DNA from: Fidelibacterota bacterium
Lineage (GTDB): Bacteria; Fidelibacterota; UBA2242
Direction: 5' to 3'
NCBI GenBank assembly: GCA_016782645.1
Contig: JADHYC010000001.1
Location: 16,579 to 80,578 of the forward strand
DNA: 64,000 nt
The notes under the pieces were generated by a model. That model made no database searches. It was given only the letters and a program-made list of their open reading frames with translations, and was not told where the DNA came from. The translations under genes and the position numbers were made by a program. This document shows, piece after piece, positions 7,833 through 47,622 of the stretch. Each line of letters opens with the position of its first letter. Position 1 is the stretch's first letter.

Positions 7833-8032
7833 GGATTGAAACAATTTGAAATATAAAGGACTTAATTTCAGTAGTTAATTGAAGGCGTCTCTTTTTCAAA
7901 GCGTCTCATAAAGGAGCAGGGCACTTTTTACTATCAACTTATATATTCACCAGGTTGCATTATTTGTTTATGTTTTGTTACTTATGTTCGAATTATGGGA
8001 ATTAAGGAAAATATATTATTTGGAGTTTTCAA

Positions 8033-11244: not shown

Positions 11245-11339
11245 ATGTTATTTATAATGAGAGTTTTAAAAGTAATTTCCCTTTTACTGGATGCCGGTCA
11301 CTAAAGAGAGGCAATGAAGTTTTTAGACATCCTGGAGTT

Positions 11340-12158
11340 GTGAAAGTTAGTATTAATGTGAAGATTATAAAAATTATTGTACGAATTAGTTTAGTCTTTA
11401 TAGTATCTATTCTTTTTATTATGTCCTGTGAAGAAGAACCTAAAACAGGTATAAATTCACTTCGATTTGAAGGTGATTATTATCTTGAGATTCCTAATTC
11501 TGCTTCTATTAAGTCTTTAGTAGCTGGAAAATATTTTACAATAGAGATGTGGGCAGCTGGAAACAGTAGTTCACCTGATATTGCAAGAACTCTGTTTATG
11601 GTTGGTAATAATGAAGGTGGTAATGAGATAGGAATTTATCAAGGACCTTATGATTCGAGTTTAGTCTGGGTTTATGTAGATGACAAATTATTTGGGTCTT
11701 TTAATATTCCCAATTTGGATTGGCGGGTTAAAAAGATACATTATTTAAGCCTTGTGAGAGTTGATAATTTTATTTCATTCTATTTTGATGGAACATTAAG
11801 AGGGATGAAATCGATTTCAGACCTTGATTTAGATATAGGTTCGAGTAATATGCTGATAGGAGCGGACTATGATCCGCCTGGTGTAAATAGTAATGAGGGT
11901 AACTTTTGGTATGGGTATATTGATGAGGTGCGAATTTGGAACAAAGACCTAATATCAACGGATGTGGAATTTCATTATAAGAATCCTGATAAACTTACAC
12001 AACACTACTCTAATGAAGGTTTGAATAATCTTGTTGGATTATGGCGGTTTAATAATGAGGAAAGTGAAGTTATGCCTGACGAAAGTGGCTCACAGAATGA
12101 TGCATATATTCGTGGTTATAATAGTATAGTATATTGGGATACGTTCGGAGTAGACTGA
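11340..12158 (+). CDS. Lipoprotein with a concanavalin-A-like / LamG (laminin G) domain
   Basis: Signal peptide plus lipobox (LVFIVSILFIMSCEE). The LamG-type motif YIDEVRIWNKDLISTD is present. The GTG start is at 11340; an alternative GTG lies at 11358. Confidence 0.55.
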   Translation: MKVSINVKIIKIIVRISLVFIVSILFIMSCEEEPKTGINSLRFEGDYYLEIPNSASIKSLVAGKYFTIEMWAAGNSSSPDIARTLFMVGNNEGGNEIGIYQGPYDSSLVWVYVDDKLFGSFNIPNLDWRVKKIHYLSLVRVDNFISFYFDGTLRGMKSISDLDLDIGSSNMLIGADYDPPGVNSNEGNFWYGYIDEVRIWNKDLISTDVEFHYKNPDKLTQHYSNEGLNNLVGLWRFNNEESEVMPDESGSQNDAYIRGYNSIVYWDTFGVD

Positions 12159-30621: not shown

Positions 30622-30796
30622 TGTGTGGATTTTAAAAATAATATGATTTATTAATTTACAATTGTATATAGTCTTATCTATTCTATCATGAGTGAAATCT
30701 TTAAAAATGTAATCTGGGTCAATAAATTAAGTAGTGCTAATTTTTCATCTTGTAAAACAGAATGAGATTTTATATTTTTGCGTCTGTTTAAGTTTA

Positions 30797-32703: not shown

Positions 32704-32885
32704 AAAAGGACGATTTCATATATTTAAGGCACATGTTAGATGCCATTTCTAGAATGTAAAAGTATATTCACGGCACAGAATACGAAAGCTTTATGGAGAA
32801 TCATCTTATACAGGACGGAGTAATAAGGCAGGTATTATGTTCTGGCTTAGTCTGTTGCCGAGAAAAGAGAAGGAGTAGTCTGTGA
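32700..32885 (+). pseudogene. Decayed HepT-like (DUF86) toxin gene, partner of the MNT remnant (ATGA overlap; in-frame TAA after codon 19; 3' end truncated or diverged)
   Basis: MKKDDFIYLRHMLDAISRM*KYIHGTEYESFMENHLIQDGVIRQ... matches HepT N-terminal helices (cf. DFIYLRHILDAI...FEEFLENELIQDAVIRNLEIIGEA). It then diverges and runs into the next gene's start. Confidence 0.5.
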
Positions 32886-33550
32886 ATAATAAGCTAAAAA
32901 TTATGCTTCCAATTATTGCTCTTCTTTTTCTGTGGGGTTGTGCAGCTCATCCTACGATTAGTCCTGTTCCCTTAAAGCGTGGTGAAACCTACACCGGAAT
33001 CACTTTTTCTGTAGAAAACGTATTTCCTGTTTTTGTATATAGAAAGGGTTTATCTGATATCAGCGACGTAGGTTTTCGTGTTGGTTTACCTATTTATGGT
33101 AGCGGTGTAGATTATTCGAGAATAGTATTTCAGCGTGGAGATATCTATGATGTAATAAACATAGGTTTTTCCTGGACACCAAATTCGAATTTGGATTTGA
33201 CATATTATACAGTAAGAACCTTTCCCAAGAAACCCGGAAACGCTTTTTATACAGGTTTTAGAGGAATGTACATTCCTAATGGCATTAGTGATAGAGAGAG
33301 TGTTCGAGTTGGAATGTTGGTTGGTATTTCTATTGAAGAGAAATGGGGATTGGAGTTAGGTTATTTTCATGATTTTGATAAAGGACAGCCTATTGAATAT
33401 TTGTTTAACCTTGAACCTAAAAACGATCCACGTTATCCTGCAGTAACTGATTATGGTTTGCCGTCAGAAAATTCAAGATTGGTTGGTTTATCTTTGCAAC
33501 TTTCGTTGAATACGAAAGTTTTTTCAAAAAGGGACAGAAGCAATAAATAG
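32882..33550 (+). CDS. Hypothetical lipoprotein
   Basis: Signal plus lipobox (MLPIIALLFLWGCAAHP). It is Gly/aromatic-rich with alternating hydrophobic residues and a C-terminal Phe-containing tail, so it may be a small outer-membrane beta-barrel. GTG start at 32882, or ATG at 32903. Confidence 0.45.
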   Translation: MNNKLKIMLPIIALLFLWGCAAHPTISPVPLKRGETYTGITFSVENVFPVFVYRKGLSDISDVGFRVGLPIYGSGVDYSRIVFQRGDIYDVINIGFSWTPNSNLDLTYYTVRTFPKKPGNAFYTGFRGMYIPNGISDRESVRVGMLVGISIEEKWGLELGYFHDFDKGQPIEYLFNLEPKNDPRYPAVTDYGLPSENSRLVGLSLQLSLNTKVFSKRDRSNK

Positions 33551-33621: not shown

Positions 33622-36600
33622 ATGAGAAAAAGAATTTTTCATCTGATAACACTTGTTATTCTTTTATGCTTTACAGTGGAAATGTCATTTGCTTCCGCTG
33701 AACTTGTTGTTAAAGGGGATTCTAAGCTTATTATTGAACTGGATCAAGTTTCCAGTGATGAAACAGCAGTTGAGCTTATAGAAAATAGTTATCAAAAAGT
33801 CGCTATGATTTATAAGTTTTCAAAAATCCAAAGTTTTAATGTTGTATCTGAAAAGGGGATATTTACGGAGATTATAATTCCAAAAGCTCATTATATTGGC
33901 AACATCGGTACACCAAAACTCCCGGCACTTAAAAAATTGATTGAAATCCCTTTTGGTGCTAAAGTATCTATTAATGTAAAAAGTTATTCAACAATTGAAT
34001 ACAAGTTAAGTAATTGTGGTATCAACAATCCACTCCTACCTGTTCAACCTTCACTACCTAAGAATATTGATCCTCGTTCCGTTGATTTTGTATATGATAT
34101 TGATTCATATACGGTTGATGAATTCAGACAATATGAAATAGCTACTGTCGAAGAGTTAGGTGTGCTCCGTGGTGTTCGTTTTGCCCGGGTAGTTGTTGCC
34201 CCTGTTCGTTATAACCCTGTAAAGGGAGTTATTAAAGTATATAATAATATTGAGGTTGAGATTAACTTTTCAGGCAGCGATATTGATCTGACTGAATACA
34301 TTAAAGCTTCTACTTATTCACCGTATTTTGAAGCAATATACAGAAAGATTATTAATTATAAAGAAAGAGAACACGGTTATCCAGATCACCCGGATTTAAC
34401 TAAATATCCTGTAAAATATTTAATTGTTGCCGATAGAATGTTTGAAAGTCAATTAGAACCTTTTATCGAATGGAAATCACAGAAAGGATTTACAGTAATT
34501 GTCACTTATACTGATGTTATTGGTACTTCATATAGTAATATTCAAACATGGATTCATAATCAATATAATTCTGGAACTCCTGCAGATCCGGCTCCAAGTT
34601 TCGTACTATTTGTTGGAGACACACCGCAAATTCCTGCAGAAACAGGTTCTTCCAGTGGAAAAGCCACAGATTTGTACTATTGTAGTGTAGACGGTGACTA
34701 TTTTCCTGAAATGTATTATGGAAGATTTTCTGCGACTACCGCCGATCAACTGCAACCTCAGGTTGACAGGACACTATATTATGAGAAATATCAATTCTCT
34801 GATCCATCATTTTTAGATAATGTTACATTGATTGCAGGAGTAGATCCGTATTGGAATCCAAATGTTGGTCAACCGACAGTTTTATACGGTACAGAAAATT
34901 ACTTTAATGTATTGCATGGGTTTAATGATGTTCATGTATATCTTGACTCTTATTCCGGATGCTACGAAACAATTAATGATGGGATCAGCTTAATCAATTA
35001 CACCGCACATGGCAGTCAAACATCCTGGGGAAATCCCGGTATGTCACAATCTGACGTTAATGCATTAACAAATGATGGAAAATATCCATTGGCTATTGGT
35101 AACTGCTGTTTATCAGGGGATTTTGGCTATTCGGAATGCTTTGGCGAAACATGGCTAAGAGCAACAAATAATACAACTGGTGAGCCAACTGGTGCAATAG
35201 GATATATTGCATCAGCTCCTTCTTCTTATTGGTTTGAAGATTTTTATTGGGCAGTAGGCGCTTTTCCAATAATAGGAGACAATAATGGCTATGTCCCTCC
35301 TTATGATTCGACTTCATGGGGTGCCTATGATGCTCCGTTTGTAAGTGATTATGTTACCCAGGATGCTTTAAACTTCGTTGGTAATCTTGCGGTTACAGAG
35401 GCTGATATTCAGGGATATCCAACTCATGTTACAGGTTCAAGTGCACTCTATTACTGGCAAGCATATAATCTGCTTGGAGATCCGTCAGTCGTTGTATATA
35501 TGACTCAGGGTGAAAATAATAATGTAAGTTTTGACGGTTTATTACCAATTGGTTCAACAAGTTTTACCGTTAATGCTGAGCCTGGCTCCTATGTAGGTAT
35601 TTCGATGAATGGAGTTTTACATGGTGCTGGTTTAATAGGTGAATATGGGACGGCTAATATACCGATAACCCCGTTTACTGTTGCAGGCACCGCTGATATT
35701 ATTGTAACAAAACCTCAGTATAAGCCAGTTTTTACTACTGTATTAGTTGCTACACCTGCAGTGGTTGGTATTAATCCTGATTCAATTTCTATTAATGTTT
35801 CAACAGAAGTAACCATTTCTGTTTATGAAGAAGATGGAACTACTCCCATTTCAGATGTAGATGTCTGGATTGAAGGATGGGGTGTTGATTCTGAGATTTT
35901 AAGTGGTACGACGAGTGGTTTGGGTGAATTAAGTTTTTCAATAACCCCTCCTTATGGAGAACGACTCAGAGTGATTGGTAAAAGACCGGTTGACAATTAC
36001 TTGCTTTTTACCAAATATATATATGTGACCGATGGTATAGATTTAACAAATGCAAATATTACTCCTAGCGTTGCATCAATTGGGCTTTTTGGTTTATTAA
36101 CACCCTATTATGAAGGACTGATTACTTCTACATGTGATGAAGCTGAAACAGTACTTTTTGCAAGAGGCTGTGGTGTGGATACATCAGTTGTGGCAACAGA
36201 GGTAAATGTAATTCCCGATGAAGTTGGTATAATTTCCGCCGCAATAGCAAAAAGCGGATATAATGTGTATGAAGAAGATATATTAGTTGAAACTGTATAT
36301 GGAACACTAAGCGGAATTGTTCGCGATGAATCCGAACAGGGAGTTCCGGAAGCAGCAATAAAAGGATTTTTACAATCAAATCCGGAAACACCTGCATTTA
36401 CTGCTATTACAAATTCGCTAGGCCAATTTACAATAGAAGGCGAACTGGAAATCGGTTATTACCAGGTTGAGATAGAAAAGTTTGGTTTAGTGCCATATTC
36501 AGAGGAACATTTTCTTCAGTATGGAGCAAACAGCTGGTTCCTTGATTTAACTGGTGCACCCAGCGGCACTGTTTCCGGCACTGTTACCGAAGCAGGCACG

Positions 36601-39075
36601 GGAGTAGCTTTAAATGCCACGGTGAATATTTACAGAGAAGAAAATGAAGAGTGGATTTTACATACTTCAGTAAATACGGTAGCAACAAGCGGTGGAATTT
36701 ATTCTGTTGATCTGCCTTATTATACCTATCTATTTAAAACTACTTCAGCTCATCATGTCCCGAAAACCTTAACAGTTCTTGTAAACAGTGCTTCTCAGAC
36801 AGTTGATTTTGCGCTTGATCCCACAGCTGGAAATATTCTTGTTATTGATGATGATTCAGGGAAAAGAAATATAAACAAAGTAGTTGACGCTGACGGAAAT
36901 TTGATTTCCGAAGAAACTGAAGTTGTTTTTTCGGAAAAGGGACAGTCAGCTAATGAAATTTCTCAAGCATTAATAAGTCTGGGATATTATGTAACTATTG
37001 AAAATGCCGGTTCAAGCAATCCTGATACATGGCTGGATTATGATTTAGTTATTTCATCTTCCGGAGCAAATAGTGACCCTGTCAATGATGATACTTATCG
37101 TACAAATCTTAAACAATATGTAGCAGAAGGCGGAAAACTGCTTATAGAAGGTGGTGAGATCGGCTATGATATGTGTAGTTATTCAGGAGACACAGAATTT
37201 GCAACAAACGTGCTGCATGTAAGTGATTGGAAAGCGGATAATGCCGGTGCTTTTAACCAGGAACTTCCCGATCATGCGATTTCTTCAATTCCAAATAGTA
37301 TTCCTGTATGTCTATACATTGATTATAATAGTTACGGAGACGAAGACGCGTGTACGCCTACTTCGGATGCTTATATTGTTTATAGTAATAATGAAAATTC
37401 AGCACACGCCGGAATCATTGTTTATGATGATAATGAAGTAGATATTAGCGCCCAGACAGTATTTTATACCTTTGCATATCCAAAATTATCTACTGCTGAA
37501 AACAGGGAAGATCTGCTTGAAAATACAGTGCTTTATTTACTTACACCTGAAATACAGGGTTCCGGTGTCTTAACCGGTACTGTTGACCTTATTGATTCTG
37601 ATAATGATGGCGGTGCTATAGTGGAAATTCTCGGAACAAATTTCGAAACAACAACAGATGTAAGCGGAGATTATGTGATCAATGATATTTATCCGGGAAC
37701 TTTTTCAGTAAAGGCATCTAAATTCGGATATACAGTCCAATATATAACAGAAGTGGTAATTGCCAATGATAGTACTACTGAAAATGTTGATTTCTTTTTA
37801 CAGCAGCTGCTTGTGGTCTTCTTTGATGATTTTGAAAATGGGACTTCTCAATGGAATTTGGAAGAGTCATGGGGATTGACAGAGAGTAGTTATTTTTCTG
37901 CTACTCATAGTTTAACAGATAGTCCGGAAGGAAATTATATAGGTAATTCTGCAGGTTGGTCAGCGTCAATGGCAGTACCGATTAATATGGAGGAATGTAC
38001 ACAGGGATTATTGAGGTTCTGGCATAAATATGAATTAGGAGCCGGAGATATGGCGAATGTGGAAGTGAGTGGAGACGGATCGTTTTGGGAAATTGTAAAA
38101 ACTTTTTCCGGAATACAGGAGGATTGGGAACAGGTAAATCTAAATTTATACTCTTATACAGGTTATGACTTTTTATGGGTAAGATTCAGGATGTCTGCCA
38201 ATGCAATGGATAATCTTGACGGATGGTATATTGATAATGTTGAGGTGATGCTTGATGCTGGTTCAGCTTTGGTCAAAGGGGATATTAATCAAGATGGGAA
38301 TATTGATGTTGCGGATATAGTCAAAGAGGTAAATTTTATTCTTAATACTGGTGAGCCGCCAACTCCGGTAGAGTTCTGGTGTGCCGATATGAATGGAGAT
38401 CACCAGATCAATGTTCTTGATATTGTTGAATTAGTAAATATCATTCTGAATGAAAAAAGTATGGCCAAAAGAGCCGGTAAATCCGCTACAAAATGTGAGA
38501 TTATTCGCAGAGGAGATGTGCTTTATTATAATTCGGATGGTGATGTAGCTGGCTTAGAACTCCACTTAATTGGAGGCAATAAAAACTCTATTACAGTTTT
38601 TCCTGAATTAGTAATCGAAAGTGCAGTTTCACAGAAAAATGATCAGACAGTTGTTCTGCTGTATAGTATGGATGAGAAAGTGCTGCCTGCAGGTGAGAAT
38701 GCACTGATGACTATTTCAGAAGGAATGAAAGTAAAATCGGTTATTGTATCAGATATTTTAGGGAAAAAAGTTGAAACTTATGTTAGAGAATTACCAACCC
38801 AATTTAGTTTATATCAGAATTATCCGAATCCCTTTAACCCGACTACGAAGATTGCTTTTGATATACCAAAATCCACTTATGTAACATTAACGATTTATGA
38901 TATTTTGGGAAGGACAATTAAAGTGCTTATAGATCAGGAATTTAAATCCGGAAGTTACGAGGCTATCTGGGACGGGAGAAATAGATATGGTGTTCAAGTA
39001 GCGTCCGGGATTTATTTCTATTCGATTGAGTCTACCGATTTTAACAAGATAAAAAAGATGATTCTTGTCAGGTAG
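33622..39075 (+). CDS. Peptidase C25 (gingipain-like) family cysteine protease, 1817 aa, carrying Ig/CarbopepD-like domains, a MAM-like domain, a type-I dockerin, a cohesin-like module and a T9SS C-terminal sorting domain
   Basis: C25 hallmarks FVLFVGDTPQIP, KATDLYYCSVDGDYFPEMYYGRFS and the catalytic His/Cys region YTAHGSQTSWGNPG...PLAIGNCCLSGDF. MAM-like ...DGWYIDNVEVM. Dockerin GDINQDGNIDVADIVKEVNFIL...ADMNGDHQINVLDIVELVNIIL. T9SS sorting domain LYQNYPNPFNPTTKIAF...IYDILGRTIKVL...GIYFYSIESTDFNKIKKMILVR. Confidence 0.8.
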   Translation: MRKRIFHLITLVILLCFTVEMSFASAELVVKGDSKLIIELDQVSSDETAVELIENSYQKVAMIYKFSKIQSFNVVSEKGIFTEIIIPKAHYIGNIGTPKLPALKKLIEIPFGAKVSINVKSYSTIEYKLSNCGINNPLLPVQPSLPKNIDPRSVDFVYDIDSYTVDEFRQYEIATVEELGVLRGVRFARVVVAPVRYNPVKGVIKVYNNIEVEINFSGSDIDLTEYIKASTYSPYFEAIYRKIINYKEREHGYPDHPDLTKYPVKYLIVADRMFESQLEPFIEWKSQKGFTVIVTYTDVIGTSYSNIQTWIHNQYNSGTPADPAPSFVLFVGDTPQIPAETGSSSGKATDLYYCSVDGDYFPEMYYGRFSATTADQLQPQVDRTLYYEKYQFSDPSFLDNVTLIAGVDPYWNPNVGQPTVLYGTENYFNVLHGFNDVHVYLDSYSGCYETINDGISLINYTAHGSQTSWGNPGMSQSDVNALTNDGKYPLAIGNCCLSGDFGYSECFGETWLRATNNTTGEPTGAIGYIASAPSSYWFEDFYWAVGAFPIIGDNNGYVPPYDSTSWGAYDAPFVSDYVTQDALNFVGNLAVTEADIQGYPTHVTGSSALYYWQAYNLLGDPSVVVYMTQGENNNVSFDGLLPIGSTSFTVNAEPGSYVGISMNGVLHGAGLIGEYGTANIPITPFTVAGTADIIVTKPQYKPVFTTVLVATPAVVGINPDSISINVSTEVTISVYEEDGTTPISDVDVWIEGWGVDSEILSGTTSGLGELSFSITPPYGERLRVIGKRPVDNYLLFTKYIYVTDGIDLTNANITPSVASIGLFGLLTPYYEGLITSTCDEAETVLFARGCGVDTSVVATEVNVIPDEVGIISAAIAKSGYNVYEEDILVETVYGTLSGIVRDESEQGVPEAAIKGFLQSNPETPAFTAITNSLGQFTIEGELEIGYYQVEIEKFGLVPYSEEHFLQYGANSWFLDLTGAPSGTVSGTVTEAGTGVALNATVNIYREENEEWILHTSVNTVATSGGIYSVDLPYYTYLFKTTSAHHVPKTLTVLVNSASQTVDFALDPTAGNILVIDDDSGKRNINKVVDADGNLISEETEVVFSEKGQSANEISQALISLGYYVTIENAGSSNPDTWLDYDLVISSSGANSDPVNDDTYRTNLKQYVAEGGKLLIEGGEIGYDMCSYSGDTEFATNVLHVSDWKADNAGAFNQELPDHAISSIPNSIPVCLYIDYNSYGDEDACTPTSDAYIVYSNNENSAHAGIIVYDDNEVDISAQTVFYTFAYPKLSTAENREDLLENTVLYLLTPEIQGSGVLTGTVDLIDSDNDGGAIVEILGTNFETTTDVSGDYVINDIYPGTFSVKASKFGYTVQYITEVVIANDSTTENVDFFLQQLLVVFFDDFENGTSQWNLEESWGLTESSYFSATHSLTDSPEGNYIGNSAGWSASMAVPINMEECTQGLLRFWHKYELGAGDMANVEVSGDGSFWEIVKTFSGIQEDWEQVNLNLYSYTGYDFLWVRFRMSANAMDNLDGWYIDNVEVMLDAGSALVKGDINQDGNIDVADIVKEVNFILNTGEPPTPVEFWCADMNGDHQINVLDIVELVNIILNEKSMAKRAGKSATKCEIIRRGDVLYYNSDGDVAGLELHLIGGNKNSITVFPELVIESAVSQKNDQTVVLLYSMDEKVLPAGENALMTISEGMKVKSVIVSDILGKKVETYVRELPTQFSLYQNYPNPFNPTTKIAFDIPKSTYVTLTIYDILGRTIKVLIDQEFKSGSYEAIWDGRNRYGVQVASGIYFYSIESTDFNKIKKMILVR

Positions 39076-39087
39076 TTATTGTAAACT

Positions 39088-39114
39088 TGCGAAGGTTTGA
39101 AACCTTCGCAAGGT
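39088..39114 (+). terminator. Perfect inverted repeat downstream of the C25 gene (possible terminator)
   Basis: cTTGCGAAGGTTtgaAACCTTCGCAAg followed by gtttggagaatttt. The T-tract is modest. Confidence 0.4.
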
Positions 39115-39341
39115 TTGGAGAATTTTGATAAAAAAATCTTGACATAATCAGGTTATTGGTTAAATTATTTTTTAAATTGGTTAATGAAAATAAATGTAAA
39201 GAAGTTCTTAGAGTATAAAAGTTGAACAACATCCATTTCTTACTGTTTTATAAATTGTAAAGGGAGAGGGAAAGTTTTTAAGTTATTAGAGGGATTTGAA
39301 TTTAAATTTAAACAAAAAAACATATTATGTAAGGAGGACTT

Positions 39342-42300
39342 ATGTGTAAGAGGTCTTTGTTAGTTGTATTTTTAATTTTTGTTTTGTTGTTGAGTTTTGG
39401 CTTTGCGGAGAATAGTGTTTCCAATAATGTGGTTAAGAAGTCAGCAGAAGTTGAGATTGTTCTTAACAAATATTTCGGCGGAGAAGAGCTTACTATTAGT
39501 GAAAAACAGATGATTGCTCCTTTCATTGAAATTAATCATAATCATCTAACTAGAAACCTTAGATCAAAAGAGGTTGTTTTAAGTGAGGACTTCTCAGGTG
39601 GAGTTTTACCTACTGGATGGACCGTTTTGGAAGGTTCTTTAAGTAATGTTGATTGGGATTTCAGTGCTCTAGATGCTACATGTGATTGTAGTAGTTACGG
39701 TGATTATGCACAGGATACATTGATTTCTCCAACAATTGATTGTTCATCATATTTAGGTCTTCGATTAAATTTTTACCAAGATTATGATGCATATTCTTAT
39801 GGAGATGTTACGACTCAAGTATTAATTTCAAATGATGGTGGAGCAACATGGATTGTTCTTTTGGATTATACAGGTATAGATCATTTAGCTGAAAACGTAG
39901 GTCCGGTTGATATTAGTACTTATGCCGATGGAGAGGCAAATGTAAAAATTGCATTTGCATATGAATCTGATTTTGGATACCATTGGACTATTGATGATAT
40001 AGTTATTGATACTCCTCCTACCGAGCCTATTATGGTTCTCAGCACCTATTCCATTGATTTTGGGAATGTTGGAGCGGAGGTTGGAAAAGAAACTGTTTCT
40101 GAGAAAGTGTATGTATCTAACAATGGCGGTGGAACGTTAAATATCACTGGTTTTACTTTAAGCTCTGCTGACCTGTCTGTTGATTCTACTTCTTTAACTG
40201 TAGAACCCGGTGTTACCGATTCTTTTGTTGTTTCTTTTGCTTCTTCCACAGCAGGTGTTTTCAATGGAAAAGTTACAATTGCAAGTAATGATGCTGTAAG
40301 CACAGATACAATAGCAGTTACAGCCACGGTAATACCAGCTGGTTATGTAGTAGAAAGTTTTGAAGATGACTTTCCGCCTCAAGGCTGGGATAGAGTTGGT
40401 TATACTTCCAGTTACTTAGATGGGTGGTATGAAAATACTTCTTCTTCTTATGTCTATGATGGTTCAAAATCTGTAAAAGCTAAAGGTCAAAATAGCTGGT
40501 TATTTACTCCTAAGCTTACCATTTCTACTGGTGATTTTATCACCTTTTACTATCGTTCAGAAAGTTCGAGTTACCCGGCAGGTTTGAAACTCAGAATATC
40601 AACAGGCTCGGATCAGATGGATACAACAGGATATACAGCAGTTCTATGGGAAGATGATAATGTTGATGAAACTGAATATCAGAAAGTTACATACACTTTT
40701 GATGCCACTTATGATGGACAGGATGTTTACCTTGCTTTTCAGAGAAATTGGGCTACTTCTAATTATTACTATACTTATGTTGATTATGTCACTCATCCAC
40801 CAATCTACTATCCCGAAGTTTCTTCAATTCTAATATCAGAGATTGTGGTTACCCCAACAGCAGGAGAGTTTGTTGAGATATATAATTCTAATATATATGA
40901 AGTCGATTTATCCAATTATTACTTAACAGATGCAACCTATGCAAGTGGTGGAGCCTACTATTACAATATCGTAACTGGTTCCAATTATGGTGGTGGTAGC
41001 TCCGCGGATTTCCATGCTCGGTTCCCGGATGGTGCTACTATTGCTGCGGAAGCATATCAGACTATTTCAATGGCAGGAAGCGAAGATTTCCTTGCTGAAT
41101 ATGGTGTAGATCCTGATTATGAGTTATATGAAGATGGTGCATCTGCCGATGCTATTCCCGATATGCGTGAGGCAGTAGCTGGAAGTATTAATAATCAGGG
41201 TGGATTGACCAATGGCGATGAAGTTGTTATTTTGTACTATTGGGATGGTGAAAGCGATCTGGTTATGGATTCCGATTATCTACTGTGGGATGATGGTGCA
41301 GAGGTACCTAATGAAGCTGTTGATAAGACTGGAGTAACTATTGACGGACCTGATGCCGATACAGATGTTTCAGCTTATTTAGATGATACTCCTATCGCAA
41401 GTCAGGATTTTGGAGTAAGCCCGGGCTACGGCTTTTCACTTCACAGAATAGATTATACCGAGGGTCTTGAAGCACAGGCAGATGGTAATGGAATTACAGG
41501 GAGCGATGAAACGAGCGAGAACACGAGTGCAACTTTTGCTATAAGCCTTCCTACTCCGGGAGCAGATGCGCAGCTTGATATATATGAACCTAATGATATT
41601 CTTAGTGCTGCAACTGCTATTACAGTACCGGATACGATAGTCGGACCGGAAATTAATCCTGATGGCGATGTTGATTGGTTCTCTTTTGCGGCTGATTCAG
41701 GTAGTTATTTAATCCTTGATTTATTTATTGATGGCTTCTCAAGTTTGGATGGCGAAATTGCCCTATTTTATAGTGATAGTGTAAAATTGGAATCCGCTGA
41801 CTCGTATGGTAGTGGTAGTGATGAAGAAATAGAATATTTTGTTGATTCCACAGGCACCTATTATGTTGCTGTTGCTCATTATTCTGATTTAAAAGATGAT
41901 CGTGCTTATACAGGAGCATACGCATTAGGAGTAAGTGTGGAAACAGAGTATGATCCCTGTGCGGATTATCCTGATCTAAATGAGCCGAATAATGACGTTG
42001 CAAATGCAACAGTAGTTTATGCAGATGATTCTCTTGCAGCAGCACTTTGTCCGACTGAAGACCTTGATTATTACTCTATCACAATTTCTGATGATGGATT
42101 ACTCTATGCAGAAACTCATCCAGGCGCAGCAGGAGACTATGGTACTGACACATATATGTACTTATTAGGCTCAGATGGAACTACTGTGTTAGATGAAGAT
42201 GACGATGCTGGCGATGGATTTACATCCTATGTCGAAGCGGAAGTTACTGCCGGTACGTATTATGTTCTTGTTGAAGTTTCTTCATATGCTGCTGGAGATG

Positions 42301-45300
42301 TGTTTGATTATGGCGTTTCATTTGGGCTTTATATACCACCGGAAGTTTATCCGCCGGCGAATTTTACGGCTTATCCCGGTGACTCGAAGGTATATCTTGA
42401 CTGGGATAGACCTGTCCCTGGTAAAGGTGGGAATTATTCCAGGTTCTCTACTCCGATTGAAAGAGATAGAATGTCTCTCAATATGAACTATGAACCTAAA
42501 AAATCTAAAGATATTACCGGGTCTGCCATTAACGTAGTTGGTGGTTATATACCAGGGGAAACTCAGGATTTACAATTCGCTATTAATATAGTTTCACCCG
42601 ATTATGAATGGTCTGACTCAGTCAGTATGACATTCCCTGCCGGTTTCACTGTAAATTCTGCAAGTGACATTGATGGAGAAGTCTACAACGGCACAGATGG
42701 ATCACTCGTTGAATGGGGCGATAATGATAACAGTTCGGGAGGAATAGTAACAGGAACTACACTTTTTACTGTAAATGTAACCGTTGACGCTGGTGTAACA
42801 GGTGAACAAACAATTAATTATCATATCAGTGGAGACGAATATGGTGCAGTACCTAACTTTGTTGATGGTTCTTTATTAATTAATGAAGGTGGTGGATGCG
42901 AAGATGATGAGTATGAAGATAATGATGATTATCTAAATCCTGCTGCAATGATACCTGGTTTATACGAAGATCTTATGCTGTGCTATATGGATGCCGATTG
43001 GTATTCAGTAATGGTTCCAGCCTATGGTTCAATAACTGTTACTACAGAAGATACAGTTGGATTATTTGACCTGCTTCTTTTCAATCTTGAAATTGATGCC
43101 AGCTATGCTATTGATTATATGATAGACAGTACTGAGATGATTGTATCGTATGTATCTATACTGGATCATGAATCGGAATTTCTTGTCGCTGTAAGAGATT
43201 ATGATTGGAATTTTGGTTCAATGGCTCAAGGTCCTTATGATATGAATATTGTGGTGGAAGAAGCTGAAGTATACACATACGATATCTATTCTGTTGACAA
43301 AACATTAATTGGAAGCACAACAGAGACGGAATATCTTGTAACTGAATTGACTAATGGTGTAGAATATTGTTTCTATGGCAAAACTGTTAATGAAGCAGAA
43401 ATTGAAAGTCCACCATCTGATACAGCATGTGCAACTCCTGAACCAGCTTTACTATGCCCGCCTGTCGGACTTACTGCTGTTCCGGGAGATACATCAGTTT
43501 ACCTTTCCTGGTCAGAGCCGGAACCACCGATGCCGCCGTGTTGGGATTTTGAGATTGATGCTTTACCCTTTGATCATATCTGGTCGAATATAGGTGCAAC
43601 GGATGATTTTGATGTGGACCTCAGTGACGGAGCTGATATTGCATACAAACTGACATTAGACATTCAGACTACACTTGATATTACGCTTTGTGATGCTGTT
43701 ACTGATTATGATACTAAGCTTCAAATTTTCTACGATTGCGAAACTCCATCTGAATTTTATGACGATGATGGTGATTATGATTGTCCTGAAGCGATAGTAT
43801 CTACTAATCCTTCTGAATTAATAGGGATAGTTCTTGATCCGGGCACCTATTTAATTGTTGTTGATGGCTTTTCTGGGTATGAGGGGAACTATGGTATTCA
43901 TGTATCTGAATCGGTAGCAGAAAAATATGTCTTTGATGCGGAAGCGGCAAGACAGTATGAATTAGATAAACTTAGTTCGATGGGACTTTCTGAAGATTTG
44001 ATGCTGCTAGATAAACAGGAAAATCCATGTGGTACATTGCTCGGTTATAAGGTTTATAATTCAGCTGGCGATTCTCTAACCTATTCAACAGTAACTAATG
44101 CATTGATAACCGGTTTGACTAATGATGTAGAATATTGCTTCTATGTGACTGCCGATTATGAGGAAGGTGAATCTTTGCCGAGTGATACAGTATGTGCCAC
44201 ACCGGAAGAACTTGTTCCTCTCCCTCCTGTTAACCTTACAGCAACTCCTTTTGATGAGGAAGTTAGACTGGATTGGGAAGAACCGGGTACAGCACCTCTA
44301 ATTTATTTTGAATGTTTTGAAACATGTGATGGTCCCGTTGGCTGGGGTATGATTATTGAGAATGTAGTTGATAATGGAACTGGTGGTTGGCTCCGAGTTG
44401 ATGACGGAACAACATACGGATGTGGTACGGGAATGAACAATTGTGGAGATGATACTGAAGGACATTGTGTATTTGCTGCCTGGAGTGCTGAAGGTAGTGC
44501 AGTTACTTCCAGATTAATATCACCTCTTATTGACTTAACGAGTGAAACTGCTGCCAACCTGACATTCGAATCTGCATACAATTACCCGGGTGATGCTGAT
44601 TCACCAAATGAGGTTGAGGTTTCGATAGATGGTGGGACAACATGGACGACTGTTTATACTGAAGATCCAACCGTTATTGGTACATGGCATATGGTTCAAG
44701 TTGATTTAAGTACATATGCCGGTTCGCAGATAAACCTCGGCTTTAAATATATTAGCACTGCTGGAAATGCAGAAGGATGGTTTATTGATGATATTGCTGT
44801 AAGAGGTGCATTGGGAAGAACCTTTGCATACAATTTCAGATATAATACGATTGTTGAAAGTAACAAGGATAAGGTTGCAAGCAACATATTATTAACTTCC
44901 GGTAATAAGGAGATTTCCGGAAGTAATATTGTATCGGAAACGGGAGAATATTTTCCAGATGCTACTGATGACCTCTGGTTTACAATTAATCAATCCAGCT
45001 CTGATGTAGAGTTCATTGATGGATTCTCTATGACATTTCCTTCCGGTGTAGTTGTAAACTTTGCCAGTGCGACCGATGGCGGAACTCCATGGAATGGAGA
45101 AACCGGAGATGGTGCAACCATAACCTGGGGTGATATGTCAGGTGGTTCCGGTTGGGGAACAATTGTTGGTTCGGAAGACTTTTCAGTTAATCTATCCACA
45201 GCAGGATTTTCCGGTCCAATGGTTATAGATTATACTTTAGTAGGTGATGGCTACGGAACTGCACCACATACAATTGACGGTCAATTAACACTTTATGAAC

Positions 45301-47570
45301 ATACTTTTATACCTGGTGAACTTCTTGGATATAATGTGTTTGTAAATGATGTACAGCATAATACCGAAATCGTCCGTGGTTTGAAATATATGGTTACCGA
45401 TCTTACTAATGAAGTAATGTATACACTTGGAGTTTCTGCTGAATACTATCCAGGTGTTCATAGTGATACAATTGAAGTAGAGGCTGCACCTATTTATATG
45501 TTTGGTGAAATAACCGGAGTAGTATATAATCCAAATGATGTTCCAATTGAAAATGCTGTTGTTTCCTGTATGGGATTAACTGATACAACTGGCACTGATG
45601 GAGTATATTTACTTGAGAATCTAATTCCAGGTCCCAATGTTGTGAAGGCTACTGCTGATGGATTTGATAAGATGGCAATTGAGGTGGAAATTATTGCACA
45701 GGCAGACCCTGTTGTTGTCGATTTTCATATGATTCCTGCTTTGGGCAGACCTGGAGGATTATTTACCGCTGAAGGTGATTCAAGAGTAGACCTACAATGG
45801 TTTTCTCCTGGAGCTGTAGGTGATGAACTTGTTGAAGGTTTTGAAGCCGCTGTATTTCCTCCAGAAGGTTGGACGCAGATTATTACTCATCCAACTACCA
45901 CATGGCAACAGTACACTGATGAATATGCTTATGAGGGCATTTATAGTGCTGGAACCTGGTGGGATTACGGTCACCAGGATGAATGGCTTATTACGCCAGA
46001 GTTGACCATTGGTTATAGAACGACATTAACATTCTGGTCCTATGCACATGAAGGTTCCCCGAATGATGATCACTATTATGTGAAAGTTTCCACAGATGGT
46101 GGATCAAACTGGATACCAGTATTTGATCTCAGTACTCTTCCTCCAATGGGTGAACTTGAATTTAATGAGTGGGAATATCCTTATACTGTTGATCTCAGTG
46201 ATTTTGCAGGTGAAGATGTAATGATTGCATGGCATGCCGAAGACCCACCAGATAATGATGGACTCTGGTTTATCTGGATGATTGATGCGATCTATATTGG
46301 CTCTGAAAAAGGTGAAATATTCTACTTTAATACAGGACTATGCGGTATTACACCTCCTGGTGTATTAGCAAAGAAAGATGCAAAACATGTACCTACGGAT
46401 GTGGAAAGCAACTATACTCAAACTATAATACACACTCCGCTTAACAAGTTAATTGCAAGCAAAGAAGACACTCTGCTTGGATATAATGTTTACCGTATAG
46501 GAGAAATTGAGGATACTTTACTTACACCAACAATGATTGCAGACACTTTCTATACTGATCTTTTTGTTATGAATTATGTTGAATATAGCTATTACGTAAA
46601 AGCGATTTGGGATACTGATGACTGGGGAGATGTTGAATCCAAGCCTTCTAATATTGCTTCTGCAACACCCTGGAAATTGGGAGATCCTAATTTTGATGAT
46701 AATATAAACGTTGCTGATATAGTATTGCTTGTAAACTTTATTTTGATGATTGATGAACCTACTGCAGATCAATTTCGTGCTGCTGATGTCAATTTTGATG
46801 ATAATTTAAATATTCTTGATATCATCATATTGATAGATATAATGCTTGGAAGAAGCACCGCAAAAGAAGTTAATGATCCCGGTATAACTGCTGATTTGAT
46901 TCTGCCTGATATAGCACCAATACATGAAAAAACCGGTAAAGTTGATCTGGGTATTGACTTTGATGGTACTGCTTACGGTTTACAGTTTACGGTCCGTTAT
47001 AATCCTGATTTAATGACCATAGGGAATCCGGTAATTAATGCTAATGAGAAATTGTCGATAGTGAAAAATCAGGTTGAAAAGGGTGAAATGATTGTTCTTG
47101 CTTATAGCATGAATGGAGAAAAAATCAACTTTAATGTTGAAAACTTATTTACTATTCCTGTTGAATTTGTTAGTAAGGGCTATCGTGGAAAAGCATCAAT
47201 CGAAATTGATGATGTAATTCTTGCCGGTCCAAGTGGAGCTGAGATATTAATGGATAAGAATTCTGGTTCTGTTACTTTAGCTGTGGTACCTGTTAAATAT
47301 GCTTTACATCAGAACTATCCAAACCCATTCAACCCGACAACTACTATTAACTATGATCTTCCTAAAAATGCTCATGTTGAGATAGTTATCTATAATATGC
47401 TTGGTCAAAATATTCGTAAGCTGGTTAATGATGATAAACCGTTTGGTTATCATTCAGTTGTCTGGGATGGAATGACGGATGCTGGTGAATCTGTTTCATC
47501 CGGATTATACATATACCGTATTATTTCTGGTGATTTCCATAAGGTAAAGAAAATGGTATTATTGAAATAA
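39342..47570 (+). CDS. Giant (2742 aa) secreted multidomain T9SS cargo protein: four MAM/choice-of-anchor-like domains, a lamin-tail domain, three pre-peptidase C-terminal (PPC) domains, FN3 domains, a CarbopepD_reg domain, a type-I dockerin, a cohesin-like module and a T9SS C-terminal sorting domain
   Basis: Signal peptide. Lamin-tail domain (ILISEIVVTPTAGEFVEIYNSNIYEVDLSNYYLTDA). PPC motifs (YEPNDILSAATAI...GDVDWFSF; NEPNNDVANATVV...DLDYYSI; EDNDDYLNPAAM...DADWYSV). MAM-like ends (HWTIDDIVID; EGWFIDDIAVRG; WMIDAIYIGS). Dockerin GDPNFDDNINVADIVLLVNFIL...ADVNFDDNLNILDIIILIDIML. T9SS sorting domain LHQNYPNPFNPTTTINY...IYNMLGQNIRKL...GLYIYRIISGDFHKVKKMVLLK. Confidence 0.75.
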   Translation: MCKRSLLVVFLIFVLLLSFGFAENSVSNNVVKKSAEVEIVLNKYFGGEELTISEKQMIAPFIEINHNHLTRNLRSKEVVLSEDFSGGVLPTGWTVLEGSLSNVDWDFSALDATCDCSSYGDYAQDTLISPTIDCSSYLGLRLNFYQDYDAYSYGDVTTQVLISNDGGATWIVLLDYTGIDHLAENVGPVDISTYADGEANVKIAFAYESDFGYHWTIDDIVIDTPPTEPIMVLSTYSIDFGNVGAEVGKETVSEKVYVSNNGGGTLNITGFTLSSADLSVDSTSLTVEPGVTDSFVVSFASSTAGVFNGKVTIASNDAVSTDTIAVTATVIPAGYVVESFEDDFPPQGWDRVGYTSSYLDGWYENTSSSYVYDGSKSVKAKGQNSWLFTPKLTISTGDFITFYYRSESSSYPAGLKLRISTGSDQMDTTGYTAVLWEDDNVDETEYQKVTYTFDATYDGQDVYLAFQRNWATSNYYYTYVDYVTHPPIYYPEVSSILISEIVVTPTAGEFVEIYNSNIYEVDLSNYYLTDATYASGGAYYYNIVTGSNYGGGSSADFHARFPDGATIAAEAYQTISMAGSEDFLAEYGVDPDYELYEDGASADAIPDMREAVAGSINNQGGLTNGDEVVILYYWDGESDLVMDSDYLLWDDGAEVPNEAVDKTGVTIDGPDADTDVSAYLDDTPIASQDFGVSPGYGFSLHRIDYTEGLEAQADGNGITGSDETSENTSATFAISLPTPGADAQLDIYEPNDILSAATAITVPDTIVGPEINPDGDVDWFSFAADSGSYLILDLFIDGFSSLDGEIALFYSDSVKLESADSYGSGSDEEIEYFVDSTGTYYVAVAHYSDLKDDRAYTGAYALGVSVETEYDPCADYPDLNEPNNDVANATVVYADDSLAAALCPTEDLDYYSITISDDGLLYAETHPGAAGDYGTDTYMYLLGSDGTTVLDEDDDAGDGFTSYVEAEVTAGTYYVLVEVSSYAAGDVFDYGVSFGLYIPPEVYPPANFTAYPGDSKVYLDWDRPVPGKGGNYSRFSTPIERDRMSLNMNYEPKKSKDITGSAINVVGGYIPGETQDLQFAINIVSPDYEWSDSVSMTFPAGFTVNSASDIDGEVYNGTDGSLVEWGDNDNSSGGIVTGTTLFTVNVTVDAGVTGEQTINYHISGDEYGAVPNFVDGSLLINEGGGCEDDEYEDNDDYLNPAAMIPGLYEDLMLCYMDADWYSVMVPAYGSITVTTEDTVGLFDLLLFNLEIDASYAIDYMIDSTEMIVSYVSILDHESEFLVAVRDYDWNFGSMAQGPYDMNIVVEEAEVYTYDIYSVDKTLIGSTTETEYLVTELTNGVEYCFYGKTVNEAEIESPPSDTACATPEPALLCPPVGLTAVPGDTSVYLSWSEPEPPMPPCWDFEIDALPFDHIWSNIGATDDFDVDLSDGADIAYKLTLDIQTTLDITLCDAVTDYDTKLQIFYDCETPSEFYDDDGDYDCPEAIVSTNPSELIGIVLDPGTYLIVVDGFSGYEGNYGIHVSESVAEKYVFDAEAARQYELDKLSSMGLSEDLMLLDKQENPCGTLLGYKVYNSAGDSLTYSTVTNALITGLTNDVEYCFYVTADYEEGESLPSDTVCATPEELVPLPPVNLTATPFDEEVRLDWEEPGTAPLIYFECFETCDGPVGWGMIIENVVDNGTGGWLRVDDGTTYGCGTGMNNCGDDTEGHCVFAAWSAEGSAVTSRLISPLIDLTSETAANLTFESAYNYPGDADSPNEVEVSIDGGTTWTTVYTEDPTVIGTWHMVQVDLSTYAGSQINLGFKYISTAGNAEGWFIDDIAVRGALGRTFAYNFRYNTIVESNKDKVASNILLTSGNKEISGSNIVSETGEYFPDATDDLWFTINQSSSDVEFIDGFSMTFPSGVVVNFASATDGGTPWNGETGDGATITWGDMSGGSGWGTIVGSEDFSVNLSTAGFSGPMVIDYTLVGDGYGTAPHTIDGQLTLYEHTFIPGELLGYNVFVNDVQHNTEIVRGLKYMVTDLTNEVMYTLGVSAEYYPGVHSDTIEVEAAPIYMFGEITGVVYNPNDVPIENAVVSCMGLTDTTGTDGVYLLENLIPGPNVVKATADGFDKMAIEVEIIAQADPVVVDFHMIPALGRPGGLFTAEGDSRVDLQWFSPGAVGDELVEGFEAAVFPPEGWTQIITHPTTTWQQYTDEYAYEGIYSAGTWWDYGHQDEWLITPELTIGYRTTLTFWSYAHEGSPNDDHYYVKVSTDGGSNWIPVFDLSTLPPMGELEFNEWEYPYTVDLSDFAGEDVMIAWHAEDPPDNDGLWFIWMIDAIYIGSEKGEIFYFNTGLCGITPPGVLAKKDAKHVPTDVESNYTQTIIHTPLNKLIASKEDTLLGYNVYRIGEIEDTLLTPTMIADTFYTDLFVMNYVEYSYYVKAIWDTDDWGDVESKPSNIASATPWKLGDPNFDDNINVADIVLLVNFILMIDEPTADQFRAADVNFDDNLNILDIIILIDIMLGRSTAKEVNDPGITADLILPDIAPIHEKTGKVDLGIDFDGTAYGLQFTVRYNPDLMTIGNPVINANEKLSIVKNQVEKGEMIVLAYSMNGEKINFNVENLFTIPVEFVSKGYRGKASIEIDDVILAGPSGAEILMDKNSGSVTLAVVPVKYALHQNYPNPFNPTTTINYDLPKNAHVEIVIYNMLGQNIRKLVNDDKPFGYHSVVWDGMTDAGESVSSGLYIYRIISGDFHKVKKMVLLK

Positions 47571-47590: not shown

Positions 47591-47622
47591 AAAAAGCCCC
47601 GATTATTTCGGGGTTTTTTTTA
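47591..47622 (+). terminator. Rho-independent terminator after the giant gene
   Basis: aaaaaGCCCCGAttattTCGGGGttttttttt is a GC stem followed by a T9 tract. Confidence 0.7.

Follow-up and report, generated by a model that had tools for sequence, protein, structure and literature searches.

What role might a giant protein have that is encoded directly behind a row of peptidase genes and itself shows no catalytic domain? The question is raised by positions 39342-47570 of the plus strand in a 64,000-nucleotide (nt) stretch of a Fidelibacterota genome (contig JADHYC010000001.1, positions 16,579-80,578), below called the window. These positions read as an open reading frame (ORF) of 2742 codons. 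The exact protein product is already in NCBI as MBL7134995.1, from a metagenome-assembled genome (MAG) of Candidatus Marinimicrobia (SAR406), in a record that names one domain type only ('choice-of-anchor J domain-containing protein'). An earlier reading made from the letters of the DNA, here called the sequence-only reading, had described a mosaic surface protein that may act as an adhesin or scaffold. This idea is supported by the present analysis and strengthened by a cohesin near the C-terminus and by three dockerin-bearing peptidase genes immediately upstream. The giant protein is probably a non-catalytic adhesin, displayed at the cell surface through the type IX secretion system (T9SS), and at the same time the scaffold of a peptidase assembly held together by cohesin and dockerin modules. 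The reading builds on the domains of the protein, the fold of its cohesin, the gene neighbourhood, the recurrence of its C-terminal tail and the exchange of a cassette between strains, all of which were observed here.

Cohesin, dockerins and neighbouring peptidases

The C-terminal tail of the giant protein consists of three domains in direct succession:

46680-46853, plus strand: type I dockerin with two Ca2+-loop repeats, aa (amino acids) 2447-2504 (PF00404, 26.7 bits, cutoff 22.9)
46860-47312, plus strand: cohesin, aa 2507-2657 (family profile and fold evidence)
47316-47558, plus strand: T9SS type A C-terminal sorting domain of the FlgD_ig type, aa 2659-2739 (TIGR04183, 35 bits, cutoff 23; PF13860, 34.2 bits, cutoff 27)

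Judged by sequence profiles and a modelled fold, aa 2507-2657 is a genuine cohesin, for which Ca2+-dependent binding of a dockerin is predicted. The Pfam family Cohesin (PF00963) matched aa ~2543-2644 with 19.6 bits (E 1.1e-3), covering profile positions 27-137 of 139. A profile constructed of aa 2505-2655 together with the orthologues had 228 matches among 1.84 billion representative proteins. Accepted scaffoldins are among the best of these: a protein with six Pfam cohesins and SLH repeats (P0016, 3.9e-27) and one with six cohesins and a T9SS tail (P0018, 2.9e-14). Also among the best matches was a protein with three cohesins, two dockerins and a T9SS tail (P0020). When a broader family profile was compared with the PDB sequences, the 23 best of the 32 matches were all cohesins (top match 3l8q, E 9.4e-8), and the few unrelated chains appeared only at E >= 0.1. 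The AlphaFold2 (AF2) model of the cohesin alone, based on an alignment of 21 sequences, was all-beta with a pLDDT of 84.9 and a pTM of 0.78. The top 50 Foldseek matches of this model in the PDB were all cohesin modules (query-normalised TM 0.51-0.73), the closest solved structure being 2jh2 (E 1.5e-9), followed by 2w1n and 2vo8. When the whole tail was modelled with five sequences, the pLDDT was below 50 over the cohesin part. The dockerin helices of the giant protein were modelled with a pLDDT of 79-89.

The two dockerin repeats of the giant protein, DPNFDDNINVAD and DVNFDDNLNILD, align with the three other dockerins of the cluster. Each of the four dockerins in the window has two intact Ca2+-loop repeats with the same loop pattern, and they are about 44-47% identical to each other. 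Counted over the window, there are four dockerins and three sorting domains beside the one full cohesin, all within 24 kb and on one strand.

The tail is not particular to this protein. The arrangement with a dockerin directly before and a sorting domain directly after the cohesin was present in 57 of the 149 representatives with a cohesin domain, as counted with dockerin and sorting-domain profiles built in this analysis, and without exception ~87-95 aa separate the end of the cohesin from the C-terminus in these proteins. With Pfam, a sample of 51 tail-bearing relatives gave FlgD_ig in 47, Dockerin_1 in 28 and Cohesin in 21, the last at E <= 1e-5. In front of the tail, these relatives mostly have beta-sandwich or beta-helix modules that are non-catalytic. 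Besides them there is a second class of proteins, ~240-260 aa long and at least about a dozen in number, that consist of nothing but signal peptide, cohesin and T9SS sorting domain (P0017, P0024, P0026, P0051, P0065, P0067, P0080, P0089, P0090, P0097 and others); judged by this composition, they would offer dockerin-bearing proteins a minimal docking site at the surface. The commonness of the tail suggests a widespread and largely undescribed cohesin-dockerin organisation of T9SS-displayed surface proteins outside the Firmicutes.

The genes upstream of the giant protein gene encode the following products:

24367-26655, plus strand: M14 carboxypeptidase ending in a dockerin, with a MAM-like domain and without a sorting domain (Pfam; dockerin and C-terminal domain (CTD) profiles)
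26934-30569, plus strand: 1211-aa protein combining four CarboxypepD_reg repeats with a T9SS sorting domain (Pfam, NCBIfam)
30734-32377, plus strand: M14 carboxypeptidase ending in a dockerin, with CarboxypepD_reg and without a sorting domain (Pfam; dockerin and CTD profiles)
33622-39075, plus strand: 1817-aa Kgp-like C25 peptidase (Pfam)

The catalytic domain of the C25 peptidase matched the Kgp structures 4tkx/4rbm at E 1.5e-112. The AHGS and GNCC stretches, which in Kgp contain the catalytic His and Cys, are conserved in it. The protein is built of a propeptide, the catalytic domain, CarboxypepD_reg domains, a MAM-like domain, a dockerin, a cohesin-like spacer and a T9SS sorting domain, and its tail and the tail of the giant protein share 35% identity. 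The ~95-aa spacer between its dockerin and sorting domain (aa 1609-1733 region, window ~38446-38820) aligned with the cohesin family in hhalign at 94.1% (E 1.2e-7). The alignment covers the C-terminal two thirds of the family, the first ~30 positions being missing. Judged from this alignment, the spacer is probably a truncated cohesin and possibly non-functional. Directly upstream of the C25 gene, positions 32882-33550 hold a 222-aa ORF with no Pfam family and a lipoprotein-like N-terminus (LFLWGC). This ORF is 96% identical at the DNA level in locus L001 of a sister strain, and because of this conservation its co-transcription with the C25 gene is possible.

The family profile found a single cohesin in the giant protein, whereas a scaffoldin of the cellulosome type has several in tandem. 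Other features of a scaffoldin are present, namely the T9SS sorting domain as an anchor and three dockerin-bearing peptidases within 15 kb upstream. Also both features of T9SS type A cargo are present, the sorting domain at the extreme C-terminus and, by inspection, an N-terminal Sec signal.

For the secretion and anchoring of the giant protein, its partners in dockerin-cohesin pairing and all of its ligands, we infer the following. As in the T9SS type A substrates of Porphyromonas and Flavobacterium, the protein would be exported by Sec via its N-terminal signal peptide, its C-terminal sorting domain would be recognised by the T9SS and cut off, and the protein would become fixed to the outer face of the outer membrane. 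The cohesin would then lie at the anchor point with the dockerin beside it, and a chain of beta-sandwiches of ~2400 residues would reach outward. The choice-of-anchor J (J) and pre-peptidase C-terminal (PPC) modules of this chain, together with its lamin-tail domain (LTD) block, may hold the cell on proteinaceous particles. The cohesin-dockerin pair would link the protein non-covalently with the dockerin- and cohesin-bearing products of the cluster, possibly also with further copies of itself. The Kgp-like C25 endopeptidase, the two M14 carboxypeptidases and a substrate-binding subunit would in this way come together at the surface, as a parallel in function to the gingipain-HagA complex, but with connectors of the cellulosome type.

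SAR406/Marinimicrobia are abundant in the dark ocean and in oxygen-minimum zones. They have no known cultured representative, and their attack on sinking protein-rich particles has been inferred only from gene lists. The locus gives a concrete model of this attack, in which a Lys-gingipain-like endopeptidase, two carboxypeptidases and a giant binder would be joined at the surface via cohesin-dockerin pairing and the T9SS; without cohesin-dockerin binding, the protein would be one more large multi-domain T9SS adhesin.

Several points weigh against the adhesin and scaffold reading. The Pfam Cohesin match stays below its cutoff (19.6 vs 24.1 bits), and therefore formal membership in the cohesins rests on the profile and fold evidence. 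With its one cohesin, each molecule could bind at most one partner, and the protein is no multi-enzyme scaffoldin in the cellulosome sense. The specificity of cohesin-dockerin pairing cannot be read from the sequence, and the mostly non-catalytic heads of the tail-bearing relatives fit general self-association or anchoring as well as the recruitment of enzymes. Both M14 enzymes are without a sorting domain, and their route over the outer membrane to a surface cohesin is unexplained; as a speculation, they might ride out bound to the cohesin on T9SS cargo. Genes of the T9SS machinery (PorK/L/M/N, SprA, PorU/V) were found neither in the window nor in the ~10 kb upstream of it; NCBI lists T9SS type A cargo among other Marinimicrobia proteins (P0274). 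Furthermore, the X domains (see below), the LTD block and two short stretches of the giant protein have no known function.

The tail could also serve self-assembly only. In this case the dockerins and cohesins of giant protein molecules would join them into homo-oligomers, forming a coat or a fibril, and the peptidases would use other cohesin carriers, for example the ~250-aa proteins. This would agree with the adjacent dockerin-cohesin pair in 57 of the 149 representatives, mostly with non-catalytic heads, with the existence of the small cohesin-sorting-domain proteins as a class, and with the cohesin of Ruminococcus bromii Amy4, which binds the dockerin of its own chain (PMC4611034). The Amy4 cohesin, however, binds the dockerins of other enzymes as well, showing that the two roles are compatible (PMC4611034). 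Moreover, the four dockerins of the cluster share one Ca2+-loop pattern at about 44-47% identity, the only full cohesin of the window is on the giant protein, and two of the enzymes end in a dockerin without any other anchor. Self-assembly as the only role is rather unlikely. A wider combination, which seems distinctly unlikely in its entirety, would see the tail as a general self-assembling anchor of T9SS bacteria. It would here build up a surface 'proteolysome' of the Kgp-like endopeptidase, cohesin-captured carboxypeptidases and a strain-variable giant adhesin as its exchangeable part for targeting substrates, in which nested fibronectin type III (FN3) domains would let modules swap while leaving the stalk intact. 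The carboxypeptidases would then possibly be bound already in the periplasm and exported through the T9SS as passengers.

Binding modules and strain variation

In the adhesin and scaffold reading, binding would be the task of the chain before the tail. The following domains were assigned to it:

39576-40007, plus strand: choice-of-anchor J domain J1 (MAM-like or gingipain-adhesin-like), aa 79-222 (NF038128, 36.7 bits)
40026-40331, plus strand: choice-of-anchor D or HYDIN-VesB-type Ig domain, aa 229-330 (NF012200, 47.4 bits, cutoff 45; PF22544, 31.5 bits, cutoff 25.5)
40353-40790, plus strand: choice-of-anchor J domain J2, aa 338-483 (NF038128, 48.2 bits)
40809-41591, plus strand: LTD block of ~260 aa, aa 490-750, with the Pfam LTD core at aa 494-637 (PF00932, 37.2 bits, cutoff 34.3)
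41586-42329, plus strand: PPC1, aa 749-866, and PPC2, aa 881-996, both collagen-binding-domain-like (PF04151)
42333-43451, plus strand: putative split FN3 'a', strands A-B at aa 998-1027 and C-G at aa 1306-1370, enclosing X1 (aa 1054-1186) and PPC3 (aa 1189-1304)
43449-44213, plus strand: putative split FN3 'b', strands A-B at aa 1370-1399 and C-G at aa 1564-1624, enclosing PPC4 (aa 1405-1524) and a linker
44208-45497, plus strand: putative split FN3 'c', strands A-B at aa 1623-1651 and C-G at aa 1988-2052, enclosing J3 (aa 1679-1820) and X2 (aa 1854-1990)
45510-45731, plus strand: CarboxypepD_reg domain, aa 2057-2130 (PF13620, 34.6 bits, cutoff 32.3)
45732-46676, plus strand: possible split FN3 'd', aa 2131-2158 and 2382-2445, enclosing J4 (aa 2163-2319) and an unassigned stretch of ~60 aa

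The domains named in the sequence-only reading (LTD, PPC, four MAM-like domains, FN3, dockerin and T9SS sorting domain) are all present by Pfam or NCBIfam, and the LTD strings quoted in it were found at aa 499 and 526, within the LTD of aa 494-637. The cohesin, the choice-of-anchor D Ig domain, the CarboxypepD_reg domain, the duplicated X domain and the splitting of the FN3 domains were absent from it. All four J domains exceed the NCBIfam cutoff for NF038128 (30 bits), J3 with 56.3 bits (48.2 bits with PF20773) and J4 with 81.5 bits. The motif (W/I)(Y/F)IDD(I/V), which had been thought to cap each of the four, occurs in its strict form in J3 (WFIDDI, aa 1813) and not in every domain: J1 has WTIDDI, J4 has WMIDAI, J2 has none, and IEIDDV at aa 2620 is a part of the cohesin. 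PPC domains had been counted as three, and their presence holds, but four PPC-like units were found. PPC1 exceeds the PF04151 cutoff in the scan of the whole protein (31.6 vs 25.9 bits); of the pieces scanned alone, PPC2 reached 23.1 bits (E 1.4e-4), while PPC3 (E 0.054) and PPC4 (E 0.025) are weak matches. PPC2 to PPC4, like the cohesin, surfaced only when the unassigned pieces were scanned singly.

The J and PPC modules are homologous to known binding domains. Among solved structures, the best matches of the J-domain profile were the Kgp haemagglutinin/adhesin domains 3m1h (2.5e-6) and 4itc (4.5e-6), followed by the MAM-like domain of InhA. Cleaved_Adhesin (PF07675) had no match on the giant protein; a match at 2.8e-16 was found on P0015, a relative. 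The profile of the four PPC units and their relatives matched the collagen-binding domains of ColG/ColH over their full length (5iku, E 3.4e-18, then 3jqw, 1nqd and 4hpk).

The Pfam fn3 matches in the giant protein start only at profile position ~26, and stretches of the form P..L.A.P....V.L.W..P were found 165-340 residues upstream of every one of them. The paired, separated pieces were joined in silico and rescored on Pfam fn3, for which the cutoff is 25 bits. In pair a, the score rose from 16.4 bits for the C-terminal piece alone to 26.7 bits (profile positions 2-78), and in pair b from 22.3 to 38.0 bits (positions 2-80). Pair c rose from 14.4 to 21.6 bits (positions 2-69), still below the cutoff, and pair d had no fn3 match, either alone or joined. 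Based on the scores of the joined pairs, X1 with PPC3, PPC4, and J3 with X2 are suggested to be nested in the B-C loops of FN3 domains. Nested inserts of 165-340 aa thus appear to split three FN3 domains (a-c), and the splitting of 'd' is possible by its sequence resemblance to pairs a-c. If true, FN3 domains hosting nested binding modules would be a neat architecture for modular exchange.

Exchange of modules is seen when strains are compared. The homologue search among 5.8 billion proteins detected only two full-length relatives, P0001 and P0002, in a word-indexed search that also skipped MBL7134995.1 itself and, with a 203-aa dockerin and cohesin query, the 83% identical P0001, so that its negatives with short or unusual queries do not equal absence. 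P0001 belongs to the sister strain with locus L001; the gene of P0002 lies in a syntenic position and is followed by HtrA. Aa 1-545 and 1617-2742 of the query are present in both relatives, the N-terminal 545 aa being collinear. The central cassette of LTD-PPC-X-PPC-FN3 (aa ~489-1617), starting with the LTD block and ending with split FN3 'b', is missing in both orthologues, which have other choice-of-anchor J/D repeats instead. The description of the protein as a mosaic therefore holds also in an evolutionary sense. A second copy of the cassette version was found neither in the species-representative genomes nor in the JGI metagenome contigs. Parts of the cassette and its flank have counterparts in other proteins: the J2-LTD-PPC1 stretch (aa 335-866) is collinear with P0291 at 55% identity, and aa 493-866 with P0301 at 66%.

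At the DNA level, L001 and the window are 96% identical over the C25 gene and flank. Inside the giant gene, blastn found four similar blocks, nt 1-71 (94%), aa 217-488 (89%), aa 2048-2131 (72%) and aa 2374-2742 (87%), and detected no DNA similarity between these blocks. At aa 488, just past J2, the similarity stops. Because the central region differs despite flanks that are 96% identical, the giant gene is regarded as a recombination hotspot. Between the C25 gene and the giant gene, L001 has an ORF for an IS200/IS605-type Y1 transposase (PF01797; L001 6405-6743), which adjoins the hotspot, at the place where the window has only a 266-nt spacer (39076-39341).

Contigs of two European Nucleotide Archive (ENA) assemblies end at gene nt ~11, ~65 and 1437 (window ~39352, ~39406 and 40778), the nt 65 end being extrapolated from perfect collinearity over 11.9 kb. 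These ends lie at or near the L001 block boundaries (nt 71 and nt 1465), which suggests that alleles of the N-terminal part co-exist in the sampled population. A binding part that is swapped between strains would mark microdiversity driven by niche or predators, and the swapping is likely to cause breaks in assemblies.

Such variation might also be expected of a protective or decoy coat that has been diversified under pressure from phages or grazers, in which case the homologies of the binding domains would be incidental. The blocks in the gene that are only 72-94% identical, with no similarity between them, beside 96% identical flanks, the contig breaks of the two assemblies at or near block boundaries and the IS200-like gene adjoining the giant gene in the sister strain are all consistent with such a coat. 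However, adhesins tracking different substrates would be equally expected to diversify, the exchanged blocks are whole binding modules found elsewhere (as J2-LTD-PPC1 in P0291), and the tail and the neighbourhood are conserved. A decoy coat is considered quite improbable.

Two components of the chain have less familiar relatives. Blocks that share 55-67% identity with the LTD block were listed for over 100 proteins, from Acidobacteriota, Anaerolineae, Calditrichia, Marinimicrobia and others, and many of the carriers are ExeM/NucH-type extracellular nucleases or OB-fold proteins. About 90 columns, including the stretch GGNG..G.DETSE, are invariant among nine sequences of different phyla. Tandem arrays of two to three copies of the block are common, as is its occurrence with extracellular nuclease domains. 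The statement that LTD and PPC domains usually accompany secreted proteases thus fits the PPC units, which resemble substrate-binding domains of proteases, but not this LTD, which is found mostly with extracellular nucleases. In ExeM, the role of the LTD is unresolved, and the domain is dispensable for DNA degradation in vivo (PMC6085458). Domain X, of ~130 aa, belongs to no family, and its two copies in the giant protein are 44% identical. The X profile matched few proteins, namely the orthologues, P0004, P0015 and one Bacteroidetes MAG protein. Conserved D, E and (mostly) H positions are present in X, the conserved His being Asn in X1. The sequence-profile search of the PDB gave no solved relative for either the LTD block or X.

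No catalytic family was detected with Pfam or NCBIfam, either in the whole protein or in the unassigned pieces scanned singly, in agreement with the earlier remark that no catalytic domain is obvious. Of the two regions that had been proposed for a search of a cryptic one, aa 650-1000 includes only the end of the ~260-aa LTD block and two PPC domains, and aa 1700-2100 includes J3, X2, the C-terminal part of an FN3 domain and the CarboxypepD_reg domain. An enzyme, for example a nuclease-related one, hidden in the X domains, the LTD block or aa 2320-2381 is very improbable. The extreme conservation of the LTD block and its co-occurrence with nuclease domains would suit it, as would the conserved D, E and mostly H of X and the lack of a solved relative for both. 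Against these stand, besides the lack of a Pfam or NCBIfam catalytic family, the nuclease activity residing in separate EEP or Endonuclease_1 domains, which are absent from the giant protein, the dispensability of the ExeM LTD for DNA degradation in vivo (PMC6085458), the Asn of X1 in the place of the conserved His, and the size of the X domains, only about 130 aa each.

Integrity and setting of the gene

The reading as a non-catalytic adhesin and scaffold presumes that the gene is correctly assembled. Two ENA assemblies (coverage 13.9x and 26.3x) are 100.000% identical to it over gene nt 1344-8229 (aa 448-2742) and 1437-8229 (aa 479-2742), a stretch that spans all the cassette junctions. Codons 1-447 are supported by the NCBI contig and collinear homologues only. 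At the domain junctions, neither DNA repeats of at least 60 nt at high identity nor a step in composition were found. Repeat-mediated misassembly was rejected for the lack of such repeats. Chimeric misassembly, which the sequence-only reading had named as the outcome that would overturn it, is very unlikely over aa 448-2742, where there are no long repeats and no composition break, and where the two assemblies are 100% identical. That the gene as a whole would be a chimera joining parts of different genes or strains is extremely improbable: the central cassette (aa ~489-1617) missing from both orthologues, the ENA contig breaks at nt ~11, nt 65 (inferred) and nt 1437 and the first ~447 codons covered by the NCBI contig only could point that way, but they are opposed by the identity of both ENA assemblies across all cassette junctions, the lack of a repeat or a composition step there, the collinearity of the N-terminal 545 aa with P0001 and P0002, and an intact frame with a Shine-Dalgarno site and a terminator.

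The signals of the gene are the following:

39139-39166, in the 266-nt intergenic region: candidate sigma-70-like promoter TTGACA/TAAATT (consensus scan)
39331-39337, plus strand: Shine-Dalgarno sequence AAGGAGG, 4 nt upstream of the ATG (sequence read)
39342-39407, plus strand: putative signal peptide, aa 1-22, MCKRSLLVVFLIFVLLLSFGFA followed by EN (by inspection of the sequence)
47597-47621, plus strand: intrinsic terminator with the stem CCCCGATTATTTCGGGG and then T8, with an A-run before it (bidirectional; terminator scan and sequence)

Promoter-like sites were not enriched in comparison to shuffled sequences in the promoter scan, and the TTGACA/TAAATT pair is a candidate only. The signal peptide is near-identical in the orthologue P0001. 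The terminator, a GC-rich hairpin (stem 47597-47613) with T8, starts 27 nt past the stop codon. As the gene is flanked by a Shine-Dalgarno sequence and a terminator, it looks like its own transcription unit. With the open frame, these two signals and the exact NCBI product, the ORF of 39342-47570 and 2742 aa proposed earlier is real. Two short antisense ORFs had been regarded as artefacts of codon bias; the one at 41725-42045 is open but of low complexity, and the one at 40046-40382 has stops in the implied frame. The longest antisense open stretch in the giant gene is 116 codons.

An HtrA/DegQ gene is located downstream of the giant gene, and the surroundings in the window are ordinary chromosomal genes, for example those for MutS2, DnaG, IleRS, MetK and HprK. 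Eight housekeeping proteins encoded in the window are exact matches of Marinimicrobia entries at NCBI (MBL7134975-MBL7135006). On these matches an origin in Cloacimonadota was rejected, which low GC, the FlgD_ig-type sorting domains and a weak match to a Cloacimonetes protein had first suggested. Of the 30 ORFs of at least 150 aa in the window, 27 are on the plus strand, and the GC skew is positive in every 2-kb window; this strand bias and skew fit a single replichore with genes co-oriented with replication. The tRNA and Rfam scans detected no tRNA and no Rfam family in the 64 kb. A second small set of probable surface proteins is located at 8033-12158, including a 343-aa protein with no family, a 726-aa protein with Big_7 and fn3, and a 272-aa protein with Laminin_G_3. 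None of the three matched the dockerin, cohesin or sorting-domain profiles built in this analysis. A 568-aa ORF without a Pfam match is present at 61211-62917; the next gene on the ENA contig L026 matches DUF5723 faintly.

Comparison with known systems

The closest system in the literature is that of Candidatus Stygibacter (Cloacimonadota), for which a cellulosome-like complex has been proposed in silico: a CTD-anchored scaffoldin with several cohesins, and dockerin-bearing enzymes, a C25 peptidase among them (Williams et al. 2021, PMC8542988). Both cases come from uncultured bacteria of the FCB group and are purely in silico, and both include signal-peptide enzymes with C-terminal dockerins, among them a C25 gingipain-like peptidase, and a very large non-catalytic cohesin carrier with a T9SS C-terminal domain for attachment to the own surface (PMC8542988). 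In both, polypeptides rather than cellulose would be the target (PMC8542988). The Stygibacter scaffoldin has tandem cohesins and CBM2/CBM3, whereas the giant protein has one cohesin, its own dockerin just before it, and binding modules of protein type. The two systems are also from different phyla, and the present neighbourhood shows peptidases only and no glycoside hydrolases. The literature search gave no paper naming Marinimicrobia together with dockerin, and cohesins are not mentioned in the Latescibacteria paper PMC4454575.

For a dockerin and a cohesin on a single chain, the best experimental model is, by analogy, Amy4 of the R. bromii amylosome, whose cohesin was shown by experiment to bind the dockerin of Amy4 itself, giving multimers, as well as dockerins on other enzymes (Ze et al. 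2015, PMC4611034). Amy4 is a GH13 enzyme of a Gram-positive host and is held through a sortase-anchored scaffoldin. The giant protein, by comparison, would be a non-catalytic carrier with the pair directly before a sorting domain, in a host that is assumed to be diderm because of its T9SS-type sorting domains.

Among solved structures, those nearest to the modelled cohesin are cohesins of Clostridium perfringens NagJ/GH84C and NanJ/GH33, which are non-cellulosomal (2jh2, TM 0.68-0.76) and were also among the best sequence-profile matches. The likeness extends to the build of the carriers, large secreted proteins of many modules with one cohesin each, and to protein-protein assembly outside cellulose degradation. 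The identity is ~15%, and the cohesins of C. perfringens are on Firmicute enzymes without a T9SS domain or an adjacent dockerin. The collagen-binding domains of ColG/ColH, with which the PPC-unit profile aligns over the full length, anchor a protease on insoluble protein; in the giant protein, the PPC units are on a non-catalytic protein, two of the four apparently nested in FN3 domains, and the marine substrates would differ.

The likeness to the gingipain-HagA surface complex, the nearest analogue in function, is seen in the neighbouring C25 peptidase, which is a close homologue of Kgp, in the J modules, which are nearest to the adhesin domains of Kgp, and in both being T9SS type A cargo. 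On the cell surface, HagA, a non-catalytic repeat protein of ~2600 aa built of such adhesin domains, is associated non-covalently with the catalytic domains of the gingipains. The giant protein has in addition the LTD, PPC and X modules, which HagA is without. In Porphyromonas gingivalis the adhesin domains are fused to the protease, are freed by proteolytic processing and associate without cohesin or dockerin, whereas here the adhesin and the peptidase are encoded by separate genes, both with connectors of the dockerin and cohesin type.

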